Source: a virus. From it: a DNA stretch of 64,000 nt. Where the stretch lies: positions 1-64,000 of the IMG/VR virus record IMGVR_UViG_3300030105_002498; one strand, given 5' to 3'. Each line of letters opens with the position of its first letter. Position 1 is the stretch's first letter. Positions 2,963 to 10,231 of the stretch are shown here, piece by piece. The translations under genes and the position numbers were made by a program. The notes beneath the pieces are model-generated. The model did no database searches and was not told the DNA's origin. It worked only from the letters and a program-made list of their open reading frames with translations.

Positions 2963-3021
2963 AATTCAATTTTTAAAAAGTTTGGTAAAATAAAAAAACA
3001 ACAAAGCCAGAAAAAACACCC

Positions 3022-3924
3022 TTAAAAGGGTGCTTCATCTGTGCTATATATTGGGTTTGTGCTCGATATAGAATCAAGTTCTCTGTACCCCATTCCAGAA
3101 GGAGATATAATGAATACTGGTTCTTCAGTTGCATTTTCTGTATCATCAATTATGCGATAACTTAAAGGATAAGCAAGGCAATCTCTACCTCTGTAGATGT
3201 CTTCCAACTCTGTCCCTCCATGTGTATCAAAGATTCCAAAAAGCTCTGAAATATTATTTCCAAGGAGTTTATTTAACCCGTTAAATTTCTCGTTTAGTTC
3301 AGTAACAGAGTTAAAGTCTACGTTAAACCCTGTATTGTAACAGTCTTTCTCAATTCTCTCTGAAGTAGTAATTTCTACAGGGACTTTATTGTGGTAGCAA
3401 TAAGGAATGTACCTATCTTTAAGGATTTCCCAAAGCTCCGAATATTTCTCTGCTGTAAAAATCTCTGAAGAAAGAAATAATTTTAAATGTGAATGATTGA
3501 TAACTCTTCGTCTTCGTACACCACTATTCTCAATAAGATTCTCAAAAGAATCTGTAGCTAACAATAAAAGTATATTATCGTTTTCATCAGCTATATAGCC
3601 TCTACAAACAGTAAGTCTATAATCATCACAACGGTAAATTTTAAGTTTATTCTCATCTGTAAGTTGCTCTAAAAATTCAGCAGGTCTAGATATACTATGG
3701 TAACTGTGTATATCCTTCATTACATTTTTAGGTCTACAGTATGAATAGACATTTCCTGCAATCTGCTCATAAAAACTTTTCCGACTTTCTGAAGGTTCAA
3801 ATATCCCTGTAGGTACATAACTGGGAAACCATTTGTTAGCTGCTGTAGTTGCCATCTTATCTTGATTAATTTGCATTCTTCCAGACTGACTTAAATAAAT
3901 TATACTAGATATGACATTATTCAT
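3022..3924 (-). CDS. hypothetical protein immediately downstream of the E1 gene (possible member of the Ubl operon)
   Basis: 300 aa; the start overlaps the E1 stop by 4 nt (ATGA). Confidence 0.6.
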   Translation of the reverse strand: MNNVISSIIYLSQSGRMQINQDKMATTAANKWFPSYVPTGIFEPSESRKSFYEQIAGNVYSYCRPKNVMKDIHSYHSISRPAEFLEQLTDENKLKIYRCDDYRLTVCRGYIADENDNILLLLATDSFENLIENSGVRRRRVINHSHLKLFLSSEIFTAEKYSELWEILKDRYIPYCYHNKVPVEITTSERIEKDCYNTGFNVDFNSVTELNEKFNGLNKLLGNNISELFGIFDTHGGTELEDIYRGRDCLAYPLSYRIIDDTENATEEPVFIISPSGMGYRELDSISSTNPIYSTDEAPF

Positions 3925-4610
3925 GATTGTATTTCAGTTAAAGTTACAGGAATAAAAAATTCATAAAAGAAAGGGACATCTCTGACATACTCTCTTTCAT
4001 AAATGTTTGTAATATGGTTTGTGAAGAAACCTAGCATGTGAGAAGCAATCATAGCAGCACTATGAGTTGTCTGCTTCAAAGTACATGGAGCATCTTCTAC
4101 ATCTCCATCAGAAAACAAGTGTTCTCTCTCATACTCATCCATATTATCTGGAGTAACACAAAAGATTTGCAATTGTTCCATAGTTAATCTTCCATCAATG
4201 AAGATAGGAGTTACAGGACAATTCTTATGACTCTTTTTCCATACATTAAATAGGTCTGTCCTTGCTTTCATGTTATCGAAAGCAGAGAAGATAAAATAAT
4301 GTGTTGGAGAATTAAGGTCAATCTTCTTATTAAATATGTTAATACTCATCCCACAAAAACTTTTAACAATATTAAAGATGGCATCCACTTTAAAGCTTCC
4401 AATATCCTCTTTTCTGAAAAGTTGTCCTCCAATGTTATGAGCTTCAATAGTATCAAAATCATATACCATAGGCTTGATATTTGCCCTGGAACAAAAGAAA
4501 GCTAACCAACTTCCAATCCCACCTGCCCCCCCAATGAGGACAGATTCAGGATTATCTGTATTAAACCAAGGTGCTCCTTTAAAACGACTGTGTTGTGTAC
4601 TTACTGGCAT
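3921..4610 (-). CDS. ThiF/E1-family ubiquitin-like activating enzyme
   Basis: GAGGIGS nucleotide-binding loop, DFDTIEAHNIGGQ, KVDA, SAFDN..AR, IDGR; candidate catalytic Cys176 in EDAPCT. Confidence 0.9.
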   Translation of the reverse strand: MPVSTQHSRFKGAPWFNTDNPESVLIGGAGGIGSWLAFFCSRANIKPMVYDFDTIEAHNIGGQLFRKEDIGSFKVDAIFNIVKSFCGMSINIFNKKIDLNSPTHYFIFSAFDNMKARTDLFNVWKKSHKNCPVTPIFIDGRLTMEQLQIFCVTPDNMDEYEREHLFSDGDVEDAPCTLKQTTHSAAMIASHMLGFFTNHITNIYEREYVRDVPFFYEFFIPVTLTEIQS

Positions 4611-5794
4611 TTTTCTTTTTTAATTATCTCTTCGCAGAGAAATGAAGTAATAGATTTAATAAATGGGTAATCTTTCTCAAAGCTTTCTAAAATTTCCATA
4701 GCTTCTTCCATAATGGTGATATATTCTCGCTCTCCTTTTGCATTTGGAAAATGCAATTGAATAACAGGAACAATATCTGCAAGCAACTCTACAACAAATA
4801 CTGGTAAAGAAGCATCATCTACGTCTTCCCAATAGAATGCTAATTCTTGAATAGCAGTTTCAACCTCAAACACAACTATATCAGCAGGTTTTCCAAATCT
4901 TAACATATAGATCAAGAACTCCTCTATCTCCTCTGTCCTAGGTTGTGCTTTACTTACAACTCCATAGAAAGCTTGTTTTTTTGGATTACCCTTGGGTTTT
5001 TTCTTTTTAGAACTAGTCTTAGGCAACTTTTTATAATAAGAATTACCTTGATTTGGATTCCAACCTTTATTTACAAAAGGTTTTGACGTTTTAGTTTTAG
5101 CTATAACTGCTTTCTCAATAATTCCTCTTACTCCTTCTGCAAAATCCACATCTACACTAATTTCTTCTTGTGGTGTTTCAAGTCCACAATCATAAACAGC
5201 TACAACTTCTCTTTTGAGCGTATAAACTTGATCTTTAATACTGTAACTGTCTCCTTCATCATTAGTAGCTTCAAAAGAAACTGGAACTTCTACTTCCACT
5301 TTTGCATGAACTGCAACTTTAGCTGTAAATTCCATGAAATTATTAACTATCAAAGAAAGATAATAATTGTGAGATGGAGAGTTATCTTCTAATTCTTCTG
5401 TATCTGTATTTGAAAAATAAACAGCCATAGTATTGTGACTATGGATATGTCCAATTTTCCAGTCCATTGCTTCAGGTTTATTCATCACATAATCAATATG
5501 CTTATCATCATAACCTGAAGTATCTCTTTTCTTTTCATTGAAACTGTACTCTGTGTAGACCTGGCTACCTTTGTGCATAGGAATGATGTCTTGAAGAGTT
5601 ATCACCATCTCAGTTGGATTAGTGATACTTCCAGAAACACTATAAAGTAAAATACCAGACCATTCTACTTTATTTATTGCACGACATAAGTATTTAATCT
5701 TATTTAGAACCTCTTCAGGCATTATGGTTTTGATAATAGCTGTTTGCTCCTGCAAACTGGATGCTTTTTTTGTAGAGACTTTTGGATAATTCAT
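4601..5794 (-). CDS. JAB/MPN+ (JAMM) metallo-isopeptidase with C-terminal extension
   Basis: EWSG glutamate followed by HSH-NTMAVYF-S-NT-D, an exact H-x-H-x7-S-x2-D JAMM motif. Confidence 0.88.
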   Translation of the reverse strand: MNYPKVSTKKASSLQEQTAIIKTIMPEEVLNKIKYLCRAINKVEWSGILLYSVSGSITNPTEMVITLQDIIPMHKGSQVYTEYSFNEKKRDTSGYDDKHIDYVMNKPEAMDWKIGHIHSHNTMAVYFSNTDTEELEDNSPSHNYYLSLIVNNFMEFTAKVAVHAKVEVEVPVSFEATNDEGDSYSIKDQVYTLKREVVAVYDCGLETPQEEISVDVDFAEGVRGIIEKAVIAKTKTSKPFVNKGWNPNQGNSYYKKLPKTSSKKKKPKGNPKKQAFYGVVSKAQPRTEEIEEFLIYMLRFGKPADIVVFEVETAIQELAFYWEDVDDASLPVFVVELLADIVPVIQLHFPNAKGEREYITIMEEAMEILESFEKDYPFIKSITSFLCEEIIKKEKCQ

Positions 5795-6938
5795 TAGATA
5801 TATGATTTAAAAAAACTGGATGAATAATAAAATTTATTGTATCAGGGACTTCCTCTGCTTTAAGGCTATCCACTTGCATGTAATGTTTCCTACCTTGCAT
5901 TAAAACATAAGGTCTTCCTTTCTTTCTATCAAATTCCTCTCTTAACTGGTGTTTAGATAAGTAGTTTTCAGGGTGTGTTGTCCCCATGTATTTCCCATCT
6001 ATCTTAATAGGAGAAACTAAATAGTATTTTTTTGCATGAAATGAAGCTTCGAGATTCGCTTTAATCAAATCTCCTAATGCTTCATCAGGTTGCACTTTGA
6101 ATCTATCTTTATCTACATAAAAATTTAGCTGGTCGTAGTCTCTCATGTTGTCTATCACTCTATGAGCAAATCTATCCATATCCGAAGTAGATACCTCATT
6201 TGAGTCTGAATAAGAGCCTAGAGTAATATTTTTCATATCCATGTGAGGTACACCATCAATAGATTCCCACTCTAACATACTATCAATAGTTAATAAAAGT
6301 AACATAAAGTTATTTTCATCGAACTCTGCTCTTAATAAGGCAAGTAAGTCAGATATTTCATTATCACCTAAACAAAAATTATTCAAATAAAGTTGGTCAC
6401 TCTTACTACTATGCCATGTGGGAAGATGAGAATGAGTGTATCTTGAATGCCATTCTCTAAAAGTAAGTTTACTTCGAGTACCTCTTGGTGATCTGAAATT
6501 GACAGTAAACTGGTCAAGAGTAAAACCTTCAGGTTCAATTTCCATAACAACAAATAGATTTTCAATCTTATGTTTATGGTCAAATTTATTAGTGATATGA
6601 ATTTCTGGGTAGAGTATGTTAATATGAAGACGAAATCCTTCAAAGTGGTCATGACCACTAAATTCAGGCTCACAAATTATATCCCAATTGTCTTTGTGGT
6701 GTAAGGTTAGTTGTTTCATAACTTGGTCCATGATAACCTGAAATTTTGTTGCCATATTATGGTTGTTTCTAACCCCCCTAATCAAACCTTTCATCACCAT
6801 ATTAAATAAAAAAGAAGGTTTACGAGAGCAACCAGTTTCTTGTAAACTCCTACCTATATTAAACCATTTTCTAGTTTTAGCTGCGTTATTCTGGTTATAC
6901 TCTCTATCATGGTTAAAAATTGCTGAAGTTAAGTCCAT
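5715..6938 (-). CDS. putative E2 (UBC-fold) conjugating enzyme-like protein
   Basis: Beta-rich region followed by HSHLP (HPN-like flap) and FCLG with Cys189, then helices; sits between the Ubl and JAB genes. Confidence 0.65.
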   Translation of the reverse strand: MDLTSAIFNHDREYNQNNAAKTRKWFNIGRSLQETGCSRKPSFLFNMVMKGLIRGVRNNHNMATKFQVIMDQVMKQLTLHHKDNWDIICEPEFSGHDHFEGFRLHINILYPEIHITNKFDHKHKIENLFVVMEIEPEGFTLDQFTVNFRSPRGTRSKLTFREWHSRYTHSHLPTWHSSKSDQLYLNNFCLGDNEISDLLALLRAEFDENNFMLLLLTIDSMLEWESIDGVPHMDMKNITLGSYSDSNEVSTSDMDRFAHRVIDNMRDYDQLNFYVDKDRFKVQPDEALGDLIKANLEASFHAKKYYLVSPIKIDGKYMGTTHPENYLSKHQLREEFDRKKGRPYVLMQGRKHYMQVDSLKAEEVPDTINFIIHPVFLNHISNELSKSLYKKSIQFAGANSYYQNHNA

Positions 6939-6964
6939 TATTTAAAATTTTAGAGTTAGAAAAT

Positions 6965-6997
6965 AAGAAGAGGACTTTATAAAAAAGTCCTCTTCTT
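6965..6997 (-). terminator. intrinsic terminator-like hairpin between the Ubl and E2-like genes
   Basis: Perfect 14-bp inverted repeat AAGAAGAGGACTTT / AAAGTCCTCTTCTT with T-rich flanks. Confidence 0.75.
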
Positions 6998-7011
6998 TTA
7001 ATTAGTTGATA

Positions 7012-7659
7012 TTAAAATCCAGCTTTGATGATATTCCAATCAGCAATTAAAGCTAATGTTTCTTCTTTATCTTCTGAAGCTTGTGCCATAGCTGTATCAA
7101 AACAAGCTTTTGCATCTTGAATCTCACGAACATAGCCAGTAGCTTCTTCGTTTCCTTCTGCAACTACTAACATAGCTTCCACTACAGCATCAAAATCCAA
7201 AGTCTCATCTTTTACGATGGCTTTAGTCATTTGCTTTACTGCACCCATAACACTATCAGATTCAGGAGCAACCCAAGCTGCAATTGCTTTTCTAAGAGCT
7301 GAAGTTCTTAGTTGAGTCCAATTTCTACCTTCTTCGATAGTTTTCAAGTGGTCTTTTAAGTCTTTTCCAAACTCTTTGATAATAGCTTTCAACTCTTTTC
7401 TTGAAGTTTCAGAACCATTAGGTAATTCAACTCCAGACTTAGTTTTAACTGGTCTCAAGAAGATTACAAAGTCCCCTTCAGGTAATACAGATAAATCATT
7501 ATCTAATCCACAACGATTAATGTTCTCTGTTGCTGCAAGAGTAGATAAATCATAACCTTCTGCTGCAACTGCACTTTTGAGTTCTCCCCAAACTTTAGCG
7601 TCACTTTGAATTTTTGTTTTGTTGCTTCCTTTAGTTGAAAAAATAGTTACTGTTCGCAT
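7012..7659 (-). CDS. ubiquitin-like (beta-grasp) protein precursor with helical C-terminal extension
   Basis: Residues 1-76 follow a beta-beta-alpha-beta pattern and end FVIFLRPVKTKSG; about 140 helical residues follow; first gene of the E2/JAB/E1 block. Confidence 0.65.
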   Translation of the reverse strand: MRTVTIFSTKGSNKTKIQSDAKVWGELKSAVAAEGYDLSTLAATENINRCGLDNDLSVLPEGDFVIFLRPVKTKSGVELPNGSETSRKELKAIIKEFGKDLKDHLKTIEEGRNWTQLRTSALRKAIAAWVAPESDSVMGAVKQMTKAIVKDETLDFDAVVEAMLVVAEGNEEATGYVREIQDAKACFDTAMAQASEDKEETLALIADWNIIKAGF

Positions 7660-7717
7660 AATAAAAAAATTTTAAAATTAATTAATAATAAATAAATAAA
7701 AAAGAAAACGTCACCTT

Positions 7718-8287
7718 CTATAATTCTATAGTTGGCTTCCTAAGTTTACTTAGGATTGTATTTGTAAATTCATAGGATTTGTCATCACCTGGAGCAATAA
7801 TATAATTATAGTCAGGGTGAATCGGAATCTCTTTAATCGTGGTTTTATCATAGGCTTTAGTGAAGAATGGGTTCTTGATGTAGGGAATAAAGTATTTTGT
7901 TTCTTCAGTAACACGCCAAATACAAGGTTGTAAAGAAGAGATAAAATCTATTACTCTTATACTGAAATTCATCCAGGAATATCTGTGAGTTTTAGGATTT
8001 CCAGTCTGAACAGTTAAAGCCGTAGGATAAAAAAATACTCCTTGGAGTTCTAAATTAACTCTTTGAATACTCTTTGCTAAGTCCACTCTAGGACTGCAAT
8101 TAACTTCAAGATGGAGGTCCACCACATTGATGTTAGTCAGAGGAAAATTGAACACTTGGAATATCTTGTTCTTTTGAGGTTGGTGAGAAATATTAGGAAG
8201 GACCTGTTCTTCTAGTGTTACTAGTTCTTCCAGGTATAAGGGAAGGAGAGAGTGCCAAGTTTCATGTACATCATGGATTGGTATCAT
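7718..8287 (-). CDS. uracil-DNA glycosylase (family 1)-like protein, catalytic motifs missing
   Basis: W..L, P....IF..F, QGVFFYPTALTV..G.P.TH...W..F...VI..IS scaffold present; GQDPY and HPSP absent. Confidence 0.65.
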   Translation of the reverse strand: MIPIHDVHETWHSLLPLYLEELVTLEEQVLPNISHQPQKNKIFQVFNFPLTNINVVDLHLEVNCSPRVDLAKSIQRVNLELQGVFFYPTALTVQTGNPKTHRYSWMNFSIRVIDFISSLQPCIWRVTEETKYFIPYIKNPFFTKAYDKTTIKEIPIHPDYNYIIAPGDDKSYEFTNTILSKLRKPTIEL

Positions 8288-9366
8288 ATCAGTCTTTTTT
8301 CAGTTAAATAATCTTTCAAGACTCTTTCACCTTTTCTATAGAATAAATCCGCAGGGTCAGTTATCTTGAGTTTTCTGAGTTCTTCAGGTAAGTAAAGGAA
8401 TGTTGCTTTAGGTTGTTCAAACAACTTATTAATAGTTTTAGCTACTTCTTGTGAAGCTTTAATACCAGTATCATCATTATCAAAAAATACAACAACTTTA
8501 TCAAATCTACTACATAAATCTTTAAGAGCCTTCTTATCAGGTGTTTGTCCTTCATTTTGAAACCACACAACATTTAAGCCTAAGTTTCTAAGTACTCTAC
8601 AATCTTTATAAGATTTAGAAATTACCAATTGTCTACCTGATGATACAAGCCTTTTAAAGTCTCCAATATCATCATTGTTACAATTAGTAACGAACTTGTA
8701 TTTTTTATTTTTCTGATAAGGTCTGTAAATTTTTCTGTGGGAATCTCCGAAGTCTGTGTAAGCATAACCTAAATCTCCAACATTGAAAGTAAAGTCTCCT
8801 TTCTTCGTGTTTTTTAACTTTAACTTTTGTATAGGAAAAACTTTGTCTTCAATAAGGTTAGCTTTTGATATGCCATACTTACTCCAGTAAATACCATCTC
8901 TATTTTGCCAACCTCTAGTAGAAACAAATATCTTAACAGGTAAGACATGTTTTTTAACAACATTAGTTATAGATAACTCTCGTCTTTTAGGACCTTGATA
9001 CTCTTTGCCATCAATTAGTTTAGCTTTTATAAAACTTAAAACTTCGTACAAATTATTAAGTTTCTCGCTGACTTGGATTGCATCAAAACAATCTATGTTT
9101 TTCATTTTGATTCTTCCATACTTAGATGGATTACCAAAATCCTTAAATCTTAATTTGTTGTTATAATACTCAAACCAACATCCAGGGTTATTGTCATTTA
9201 GTCTTGGGTCATCACTCACCCTAAAAGGAGAAGTCACATATTGAAACTCTTCAGGTTCAAAGTCAAAGACTAAAGAAAAAATCTCTTCTTGAGATATATA
9301 TTTAAGAATGGTGTTCTTATCAATATATCCTATTGGGTCTAAATCATCAGTCTTTTGATTACACAT
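8284..9366 (-). CDS. DNA primase (TOPRIM, crAss-type)
   Basis: SPFR, FKDFG, ISKSYKD, FQNEG, FFDNDDTG and DPAD motifs. Confidence 0.85.
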   Translation of the reverse strand: MCNQKTDDLDPIGYIDKNTILKYISQEEIFSLVFDFEPEEFQYVTSPFRVSDDPRLNDNNPGCWFEYYNNKLRFKDFGNPSKYGRIKMKNIDCFDAIQVSEKLNNLYEVLSFIKAKLIDGKEYQGPKRRELSITNVVKKHVLPVKIFVSTRGWQNRDGIYWSKYGISKANLIEDKVFPIQKLKLKNTKKGDFTFNVGDLGYAYTDFGDSHRKIYRPYQKNKKYKFVTNCNNDDIGDFKRLVSSGRQLVISKSYKDCRVLRNLGLNVVWFQNEGQTPDKKALKDLCSRFDKVVVFFDNDDTGIKASQEVAKTINKLFEQPKATFLYLPEELRKLKITDPADLFYRKGERVLKDYLTEKRLI

Positions 9367-9387
9367 AGATAAGATTTAAGATGAAAT

Positions 9388-9420
9388 AAAAGGAGTCTCC
9401 AAGGGGAAGAGACTCCTTTT
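9388..9420 (-). terminator. intrinsic terminator hairpin
   Basis: AAAAGGAGTCTC / GAGACTCCTTTT inverted repeat after 9443..10231. Confidence 0.75.
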
Positions 9421-9442
9421 TCATATACGGAAAATTATTTGA

Positions 9443-10231
9443 CTACCACTTTGACTTAGATGCTGCTTTTCCTGCATCAGCAGTAAAGTTCTCATTAGAA
9501 CCAACAGCTTGTCTTGGACCATTTTCTTGTCCTTCTTCTTGTAAGTAAGCTTTCTCTGAACCCATGAAGTTTGCATCTCTAGTGAATGGGTGTTCCACTC
9601 CTTCAGGTGTTACATACTTCAAGTTTCCTTCAAAACATTCTTTGAAGTCACCTCTGAAAGAAGGGCAGAAGAATCTTCCACCTTTCATATTTTTAGCTAA
9701 CTCTAAGAATGTTCTATCTTGACCATCAGCAATTTGCCATTGGTATTGCAAGAAAGTATCAATAGGAATTGTAGTATAAGTCTGAGGTAACAGACCACAT
9801 ACAATTTGCGCCCATGCAGCAAAGTTTGCAGCAGGTGTTGCTAGAGCAGCATCAAGACTAGCTTGAGTAACTCCTACAGCTTTAACTGCATGAATCACTA
9901 CAGCTTTTTGTTGCTTAATTTTCGTATTATAAGCAATAGTGTACTCATCTTCCCACTCTGCACCTGGTACTGGAGCTGGAATTTTGTCCCCACTTGCCCC
10001 AAACAAATCTCCAGTTACATCATAGATTCTACGATTGTATTCTCTGTCCCCAATTTTCACGTTGATGTCTACTGCATCAGCAGCAGCTCCATCTGCACCA
10101 GCAGTTGCATTATAGATAATCTTTGTGAAGAATACTCCAGAATTTAGACCAAATGCTCCACCTGTTTTTGATTTTAAGCTTTGGTCATTGTCATTAACTG
10201 TACCGAAACCTTCTCTTTGAATTTTTCCCAT
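9443..10231 (-). CDS. hypothetical protein, possibly single-stranded DNA-binding
   Basis: Lies between the Sak4-like ATPase and primase; flexible tail ending in W; followed by a terminator. Function inferred from context only. Confidence 0.5.
   Translation of the reverse strand: MGKIQREGFGTVNDNDQSLKSKTGGAFGLNSGVFFTKIIYNATAGADGAAADAVDINVKIGDREYNRRIYDVTGDLFGASGDKIPAPVPGAEWEDEYTIAYNTKIKQQKAVVIHAVKAVGVTQASLDAALATPAANFAAWAQIVCGLLPQTYTTIPIDTFLQYQWQIADGQDRTFLELAKNMKGGRFFCPSFRGDFKECFEGNLKYVTPEGVEHPFTRDANFMGSEKAYLQEEGQENGPRQAVGSNENFTADAGKAASKSKW

Follow-up and report, generated by a model that had tools for sequence, protein, structure and literature searches.

Can a bacterial virus carry a complete ubiquitin-like protein (Ubl) conjugation pathway of its own? 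This question is raised by four adjacent genes in a 64,000-nucleotide stretch of viral DNA (positions 1 to 64,000 of the IMG/VR record IMGVR_UViG_3300030105_002498; hereafter, the window). A first-pass annotation, made from the letters alone, had proposed that four adjacent, co-oriented open reading frames (ORFs) encode a Ubl, an E2-like protein, a JAB peptidase and an E1-like enzyme, and all four are found in the ORF list at exactly the positions it gave, on the minus strand (Table 1). The analysis reported here suggests that a phage-encoded Ubl conjugation cascade is the best reading of this cassette, and one that is probably correct. The features that appear to fit such a cascade best are the parts list itself, an invariant Gly at the end of the Ubl that is always capped, an invariant Cys in both the E1-like enzyme and the UBC-fold protein, and the strict co-inheritance of the four genes. 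From these features, we infer the chemical steps, the cleavage site, the role of the E2 and the lysine acceptor.

Linkage of the Four Genes in crAss-like Phages

An IMG/VR pattern scan with a profile of the E2-like protein yielded 80 loci, whose ORFs were searched by phmmer and with hidden Markov models (HMMs). By phmmer, each of the four genes was found in 74–81 of 84 loci, 80 of which are the independent IMG/VR viral contigs. The gene order primase, (uracil-DNA glycosylase-like), Ubl, E2-like, JAB, E1 holds in nearly all of the 80 viral contigs, and the incomplete orders mostly fall at contig ends. Annotated genomes of Flavobacterium phage Fpv3, Kolpuevirus Bc03 and Bacteroides phage DAC15 show this order too. 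The synteny that had been put forward for checking therefore extends over crAss-like phages, including cultured ones; the cultured relatives carrying the cassette include crAss001, DAC15 and FpV4. These features of the cassette are far beyond chance. In the three annotated phages, the cassette genes carry no other names than "hypothetical protein", "thiamine biosynthesis protein" and "metalloprotease", and the current annotation thus hides the system. The residues singled out in the first-pass annotation (Gly76 of the Ubl, Cys189 of the E2-like protein, Cys176 of the E1-like enzyme and the JAMM residues of the peptidase) are all present and occupy invariant or near-invariant columns of the respective alignments.

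Table 1. Positions in the window of the cassette genes, of their key residues and of neighboring features.
Feature	Position	Strand	Remarks
Ubl precursor	7012–7659	minus	215 residues; residues 1–76, predicted beta-grasp ending K74-S75-G76; residues 77–215, predicted helical tail capping Gly76
Codons of K74-S75-G76	7432–7440	minus	
Codon of Gly76	7432–7434	minus	predicted mature C-terminus; predicted JAB cut after Gly76
E2-like protein	5715–6938	minus	407 residues; predicted UBC/UEV-type fold, ~33–240; further domain, ~245–407, fold unassigned
Codons of H169-S170-H171	6426–6434	minus	
Codon of Cys189	6372–6374	minus	candidate E2 active-site cysteine
JAB/JAMM metallopeptidase	4601–5794	minus	397 residues (longest ORF; alternative start Met25); JAMM motif
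E1-like adenylyltransferase, minimal	3921–4610	minus	229 residues; ThiF family; single domain
Codon of Cys176	4083–4085	minus	
Fifth gene	3022–3924	minus	up to 300 residues; start overlaps E1 stop (ATGA); function unassigned
Hairpin	6965–6997	minus	14-bp stem and T-rich tract; terminator-like site between Ubl and E2-like genes
UDG-like ORF	7718–8287		189 residues; between primase and Ubl gene; weak partial uracil-DNA glycosylase (UDG) matches (E ~2e-4, 40 residues)
DnaG-type primase	8284–9366		cassette flank; phrog_12622, E 4.5e-76
Second hairpin	9388–9420	minus	terminator-like

The Ubl Precursor

The beta-grasp suspected at the start of the Ubl precursor is borne out by structure prediction. 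In an AlphaFold2 model built from a 60-sequence alignment, residues 1–70 of the 76-residue domain follow the order strand-strand-helix-strand-strand; the predicted local distance difference test (pLDDT) is 88.7 overall and 96–98 for residues 1–70, and residues ~71–80 are less certain and lead into the helical tail. The Foldseek neighbors of the domain are SUMO1, NEDD8, ubiquitin, ISG15, FAT10 and MoaD (probability 1.0; root-mean-square deviation (rmsd) 2.3–2.8 Å). A VIA search, which is independent of Foldseek, returned Z values of 8–9.8 at an rmsd of ~2 Å over 66–73 residues, and all 50 of the best 50 rows were ubiquitin-type domains (Ub/Ubl/UBX/DIX). At the sequence level, no Pfam, NCBIfam or PADLOC family matched the Ubl, the only library match being phrog_15560, and when every member of the alignment was scanned with Pfam and NCBIfam, only scattered chance matches resulted. 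A word-based homologue search with the Ubl found six proteins, and an HMM of the domain finds the Ubl in 83 loci.

Gly76 was expected to be conserved, and it is the sole invariant column of the 60-homologue alignment. K74 and S75 are at least 90% conserved, and the residue before the Gly is Ser or Ala, not Gly. In 70 unique Ubl domains, this Gly is never the last residue; tails could be scored for 60 of them and range from 1 to 267 residues, with a variable P1' residue. Since no Ubl variant terminates at the Gly, trimming would be obligatory, and a Ubl that is always capped would make a co-inherited peptidase necessary, which fits the universal presence of JAB. In 56 loci, Steigviridae included, the tail forms a conserved helical domain; it is dispensable in others, being only 1–3 residues long in several phages. 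Because tails of 1–3 residues occur, the conserved functional unit appears to be the Ubl ending in Gly and not the tail: as judged from the alignments, it is a predicted 76-residue beta-grasp ending in (S/A)-G that is always capped. The possibility that the tail domain is shifted onto the E2-like protein in phages with a short Ubl was rejected, as an HMM of the tail matches Ubl genes only.

The E2-like Protein

For the E2-like protein, the first-pass annotation had anticipated a UBC fold, and a UBC/UEV-type fold is what AlphaFold2 predicts (pLDDT 90.4; predicted template modeling score 0.87). The model begins with a long helix that is followed by a five-stranded meander; next come a short helix and the H-S-H loop, then Cys189, 5 residues ahead of a helix, and further helices. 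The top Foldseek matches in the PDB are UEV/UBC domains, with weak E-values. In a wide VIA search, the neighbors included the UEV domain of TSG101 (Z 5.7), UBE2O (5.1), Citrobacter BubB (9eav_D; 5.1) and Cap2 (4.1), and by manual classing at least 38 of the 50 rows were UBC, UEV or RWD domains, among them many E2s and RWD domains. A second look with VIA placed all 50 of the best re-aligned rows in the UBC/UEV/RWD group at Z 4.3–6.2, the top row aligning 139 of 144 residues. These values lie in a range that, by the tool's own warning, may reflect a common arrangement; the weight therefore rests on how uniform the list is, on the nearly complete coverage of the reference domains and on the confident model.

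A word-based homologue search returned the E2-like query alone, and a full HMMER search combined with a synteny harvest was used instead; the full search places the family at 1691 cluster representatives. Among 103 relatives at 20–35% identity, S170, H171, C189, E225 and P231 are invariant, and Y167, H169, L172, F188, G191, W224, S226 and G229 are nearly so. Two motifs stand out, Y167-x-H169-S170-H171-L172 and F188-C189-x-G191. The first-pass annotation had likened this HSH...C arrangement to the HPN...C core of UBC folds. The analogy is supported insofar as the predicted fold is of UBC/UEV type and Ser170, His171 and Cys189 are invariant, the conservation of Cys189 having been singled out for checking. 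It does not extend to the HPN motif itself, which in E2s lies ~8–10 residues before the Cys and is absent here, H171 being 18 residues before Cys189, nor to a match with any E2 family. A search of the profile against PDB sequences gave nothing relevant, and a fold search of BFVD returned uncharacterized crAss-like proteins only, plus giant-virus E2s at E ~0.2. Based on predicted fold, invariant residues and context, the E2 assignment is probable.

The E1-like Enzyme and the JAB Peptidase

The assignment of the fourth gene to the ThiF/E1 group is upheld by the Pfam model ThiF (PF00899), which the protein matches above the curated cut-off (E 2e-13; 50.4 bits vs. 28.1). When a profile of 51 homologues was used, the best relatives of solved structure included UBA5 (E 2.5e-13), MccB, UBA3, SAE2, MoeB, UBA1 and Cap2. 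Across the 51 sequences, the invariant columns are G28, G30 and G31 of the Gly-rich loop, D51, D53, N59, K74, D112, R117, R141 and C176, the last of these being the cysteine that had been proposed as the candidate catalytic residue. The Mg/ATP-binding Asp D112 and R117 (D-N-x-x-x-R) and the phosphate-binding K74 are thus present. Cys176 lies 64 residues after D112, a spacing similar to that of ThiF Cys184, and is a candidate for the catalytic Cys that conjugating E1s carry downstream of the adenylation core, in the crossover-loop region. The NCBIfam matches of the enzyme (short ThiF families, PRTRC_ThiF and a 6A-MBL Cap2-like protein) are all far under their cut-offs, which makes it a family of its own. 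A predicted complex of the E1 with residues 1–76 of the Ubl scored 0.11 and 0.09 (mark 0.32), which weighs neither for nor against an interaction.

A ThiF homologue with 27% identity is also encoded by Xanthomonas phage PhiXhv-15 (84889–85572 of that record). In jumbo Xanthomonas phages, the ThiF gene adjoins a gene for an 892-residue hypothetical protein and topoisomerase genes, a different context.

In the JAB protein, the JAMM motif described as intact is complete (E44 ... H118-S-H120-x7-S128-x2-D131), and each of its residues is either invariant or conserved to at least 90% in 52–67 JAB relatives. A Lys-rich linker joins the N-terminal JAMM domain of the protein to a helical region at the C-terminus. 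The protein matches the PADLOC JAB model at E 1.5e-4 and falls below the gathering cut-off of Pfam Prok-JAB (PF14464; 14.5 bits vs. 25). This model is matched by 19 of 52 JAB relatives (E ≤0.01, best 1.4e-7), and no other family recurs among them; a search of the JAB profile against PDB sequences gave nothing relevant. The linker (residues ~226–285; window 4940–5120) holds 16 Lys in 60 residues. Its candidacy as a conserved acceptor site was rejected because the Lys enrichment is specific to this phage (25% Lys vs. a mean of 13% in relatives).

Proposed Pathway and Alternative Readings

In the pathway proposed here, the Ubl would be made as a precursor whose tail caps Gly76, and the JAMM peptidase would cut after this residue; by analogy with Cap3 and BilC, the same peptidase may strip the tag again. 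The minimal ThiF-type E1 would adenylate Gly76, the Ubl would move onto Cys176 and would then be handed to Cys189 of the UBC-fold protein. The extra C-terminal domain of the latter may pick the acceptor, with no separate E3, and the Ubl would become attached to a lysine, in either a phage or a host protein. Owing to the hairpin that follows the Ubl gene, the modifier is probably made in excess of the enzymes. On account of the core-like conservation of the cassette in the replication block, a role in the phage's own cycle is more likely than accessory counter-defense. The position of the cassette in this block and its near-universal retention likewise suggest a role in the phage's own program. 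Of the purposes put forward in the first-pass annotation, tagging of host or phage proteins and counter-defense, the latter thus appears less probable.

Several observations weigh against a conjugation cascade. The cascade is proposed here from sequence and predicted folds, and neither an E3 nor a target was identified for the cassette. The Ubl ends in Ser-Gly instead of Gly-Gly. In the E1-like enzyme, the Arg of the NxxR(Q/L) motif is replaced (N59-I-G-G62-Q63, with G62 and Q63 at least 90% conserved); the family pattern is N-x-G-G-Q, with G62 at the position held in the alignment by the UBA5 Arg. The missing ATP-contacting Arg is a caveat that needs explaining, and the conserved R9 and R141 might substitute for it. 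The enzyme also lacks a second adenylation domain, a separate Cys domain, a ubiquitin-fold domain and the extra domains of conjugating E1s of the BilD type. As for the E2-like protein, its structural similarity to E2s is modest (Z ≤6.2), and its best structural neighbors are the catalytically dead UEV domains of TSG101 and Vps23. The catalytic Cys of UbcH5b and Ubc9 falls within ~3–4 residues of Cys189, an estimate counted from the alignment ends and not from a residue-level superposition. No Pfam, NCBIfam or PADLOC E2 family matches the protein, a Pfam and NCBIfam scan of the 103 members having given chance matches only. In a profile comparison with a 25-sequence Prok-E2_D profile (hhalign), the sole local match, which pairs FCLG with VCLG, was not significant (E 0.059, 11 columns). 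Finally, H169, H171, C189 and E225 might instead be the ligands of a metal.

The kinship with UEV domains bears directly on one alternative, in which JAB-matured, E1-activated Ubl is transferred straight from the E1, as for archaeal SAMPs, Urm1 and Thermus TtuB, and the 407-residue protein serves as a non-catalytic, UEV-like Ubl-binding adaptor or substrate receptor. The closest folds are indeed ubiquitin binders without catalysis, and a protein lacking both the HPN motif and an E2 family match would suit such a role. However, UEVs are defined by the loss of the catalytic Cys. They lack this residue by definition, yet Cys189 is invariant here, and together with His171, Ser170 and Glu225 it is maintained in the manner of an active site among relatives as divergent as those described above. 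We therefore regard E2-independent transfer as unlikely.

Two further readings are more doubtful still. The Ubl could be a sulfur carrier of the ThiS/MoaD/TtuB kind, adenylated by the E1 and converted to a thiocarboxylate that supplies the sulfur for modifying a phage nucleotide, DNA or tRNA. That the nearest NCBIfam models of the E1 are short ThiF families and that MoaD is among the structural neighbors of the Ubl would agree with this idea, but the E1 matches lie far under the equivalog cut-offs, and the always-linked UBC-fold protein with its invariant Cys would be left unexplained. The first-pass annotation had seen no ThiG, MoaE or other sulfur-transfer partner in the window, and the same is true of the complete 93-kb genome, in which no ThiG, MoaE, TtuA-type PP-loop ATPase/thiolase, rhodanese or IscS/cysteine desulfurase was found, the control genomes being positive. 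Host enzymes could serve in their place; even so, the absence of these partners from a complete genome weakens the sulfur-carrier reading, which we consider very unlikely. Alternatively, the beta-grasp could be a removable folding or timing tag, as in ubiquitin-ribosomal protein fusions or the Ubl of lambda tail-assembly protein I; the working product released by JAB would then be the helical tail, with something else as the substrate of the E1 and of the E2-like protein. Pairs of Ubl and JAB without E1 or E2 are known in phage tail modules (Iyer et al. 2006, PMC1779556), and the tail is a conserved domain in the 56 loci mentioned above. A product of merely 1–3 residues in several phages is hard to reconcile with this proposal, however, and the E1 and the E2-like protein are linked to the cassette as tightly as JAB is; processing alone is thus improbable to much the same degree as sulfur transfer.

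Comparison with Known Systems

If the cassette does encode a conjugation cascade, its closest counterpart in composition may be sought among the bacterial systems. The anti-phage system Bil (BilA-BilB-BilC-BilD) comprises a separate Ubl, E2, JAB/JAMM and E1 and no E3, and selection of the target has been proposed to fall to the E2 (PMC11601596; Chambers et al., PMC10557695). The phage cassette likewise has the same four parts as separate genes and no E3. Unlike Bil, which is host-encoded, it resides in a complete phage genome; its E1 is a 229-residue single ThiF adenylation domain, whereas that of Bil has the architecture IAD-AAD-CYS. The phage Ubl also differs from that of Bil in being a single 76-residue beta-grasp with a capped Ser-Gly end, as does the 407-residue E2-like protein in having an extra domain. 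Neither the phage Ubl nor the E2-like protein is matched by any model of Bil-type systems in PADLOC, Pfam or NCBIfam.

In type I Bub systems (6E.1: BubAB, BubCD, BubE), a precursor Ubl is cut out by JAB/JAMM before activation (Ye et al. 2024, PMC11601596). These systems feature Ubl-E2 and JAB-E1 fusions, a DUF6527 serine protease, Tyr/Ser oxyesters and no catalytic Cys (PMC11601596). The phage cassette resembles Bub in its precursor Ubl, predicted to be freed by JAB, and in the proximity of BubB to the E2-like protein in the VIA search. In contrast, the phage genes are separate, Cys176 and Cys189 are invariant, and DUF6527 was not detected in the cassette proteins or in the flanking ORFs that were scanned.

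PRTRC (class 6d) systems, which are uncharacterized, encode a Ubl, JAB, E1-like and E2-like protein on plasmids and integrative and conjugative elements (Iyer et al. 2006, PMC1779556). They share with the phage cassette a location on mobile elements, a small single-domain ThiF, a small Ubl and a C-L-G motif at the Cys of the E2-like protein, and the phage E1 profile matches PRTRC ThiF with an hhalign probability of 97%. However, the NCBIfam models place the phage proteins well outside these families: PRTRC_ThiF scores 36.2 bits vs. a cut-off of 144.75 and PRTRC_A 15.6 vs. 101.8, and no other PRTRC model (TIGR03735-03741) is matched. Comparison of the phage Ubl and E2-like profiles with single PRTRC C and Prok-E2_D sequences by hhalign gave no significant match. 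The surroundings differ as well, the phage cassette adjoining a primase and PRTRC adjoining ParB. A Bacteroidales PRTRC cassette on a Parabacteroides distasonis plasmid (1558–4470) is annotated as protein E, protein C, a 375-residue hypothetical protein, Prok-E2_D and ThiF, with no annotated JAB (protein A).

Type II CBASS offers a further parallel, as E1, E2 (Cap2) and JAB (Cap3) chemistry is there performed on a protein C-terminus. The phage E1 weakly matches PADLOC Cap2 (best E 3.7e-7), and Cap2 is among the fold neighbors of the E2-like protein listed above. Type II CBASS differs in that its E2 and E1 are fused (Cap2), in that it is a host defense, and in that it does without a beta-grasp Ubl because the CD-NTase itself is conjugated. 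Among phages, the tail assembly proteins I and K of lambda and T1 come closest to the processing step: protein I is a phage beta-grasp whose conserved C-terminal Gly precedes another domain, and it lies beside a JAB predicted to cut there (Iyer et al. 2006, PMC1779556). In this case, there is no E1 or E2, and the genes belong to a tail module and not to a replication module. Judged by sequence and by architecture, the phage system belongs to none of Bil, Bub and PRTRC.

Implications of a Virus-Encoded Ubl Kit

Prokaryotic Ubl conjugation is known as a weapon of hosts against phages, in the form of Bil, type II CBASS and probably Bub. To date, work on Ubl kits has been confined to cells; a complete kit that belongs to a virus reverses this picture. 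Fixed beside the primase in thousands of crAss-like genomes, it would add a layer of post-translational control to phage biology. The first-pass annotation knew of no characterized phage-encoded cascade of this kind, and full-text literature searches, which returned no description of the phage cassette, agree; one 2026 preprint merely mentions a phage protein family that resembles UBA5. The E2-like and Ubl families are both absent from Pfam, NCBIfam and PADLOC.

A broader proposal, in which our confidence is about evenly balanced, is that crAss-like phages, which rank with the most abundant viruses of the human gut and of marine Bacteroidota, run a self-encoded, E3-less Ubl conjugation as a near-core part of replication. 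It would involve a new E2 family (H-S-H ... F-C-x-G) and an E1 without the canonical ATP-contacting Arg, would constitute the first complete Ubl cascade of a bacterial virus, and might form a pool for the exchange of parts with host Bil, Bub and PRTRC systems. Because cultured phage-host pairs carry the kit, it is directly testable; these pairs are crAss001 with B. intestinalis, DAC15 with B. thetaiotaomicron and FpV4-type phages with F. psychrophilum.

Genomic Setting of the Cassette

The virus record that contains the window is 93,330 bp long and is a complete genome according to CheckV. The phage is crAss-like, and it is marine, given that DNA nearly identical to window positions 3000–9500 is found in marine and marine-sediment metagenomes from three studies (one perhaps the source sample). 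Its nearest cultured relatives infect Flavobacterium psychrophilum. The window is AT-rich (GC ~34%), and a megablast search of the region against phage records gave zero matches.

On the side of the Ubl gene, the cassette is flanked by the UDG-like ORF, which occurs in about half of the related loci, and by the primase. The other flank holds a 300-residue ORF, listed as the fifth gene in Table 1, and a PD-(D/E)XK-type exonuclease. A homologue of this fifth gene lies directly downstream of E1 in 44 loci (45 loci hold one, and 68 loci have at least 900 nucleotides past E1). This gene showed weak conservation, no motif and no family other than phrog_15446.

Adjacent genes overlap at three junctions in the window, namely E2-like/JAB, JAB/E1 and E1/next gene. 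Taken as longest ORFs, the E2-like and JAB genes share 80 nucleotides (5715–5794) in different frames, and in related loci (two of the IMG/VR contigs, L003 and L004, and Fpv3) this overlap is ~89–149 nucleotides. A JAB start at Met25 (5720–5722) would shrink the overlap to 8 nucleotides; there is faint conservation upstream of Met25 in the alignment.

The hairpin between the Ubl and E2-like genes is a candidate terminator, attenuator or RNA-stabilizing element. In most related loci, a stable hairpin (minimum free energy about -13 to -28 kcal/mol) occupies the same gap of 45–70 nucleotides. Together with the second terminator-like hairpin, it brackets the primase/UDG-like/Ubl block, the stems being 13–14 bp long. 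As the upstream hairpin lies only ~22 nucleotides before the primase start, the two may be leaky terminators or RNA-stabilizing elements and not full stops.

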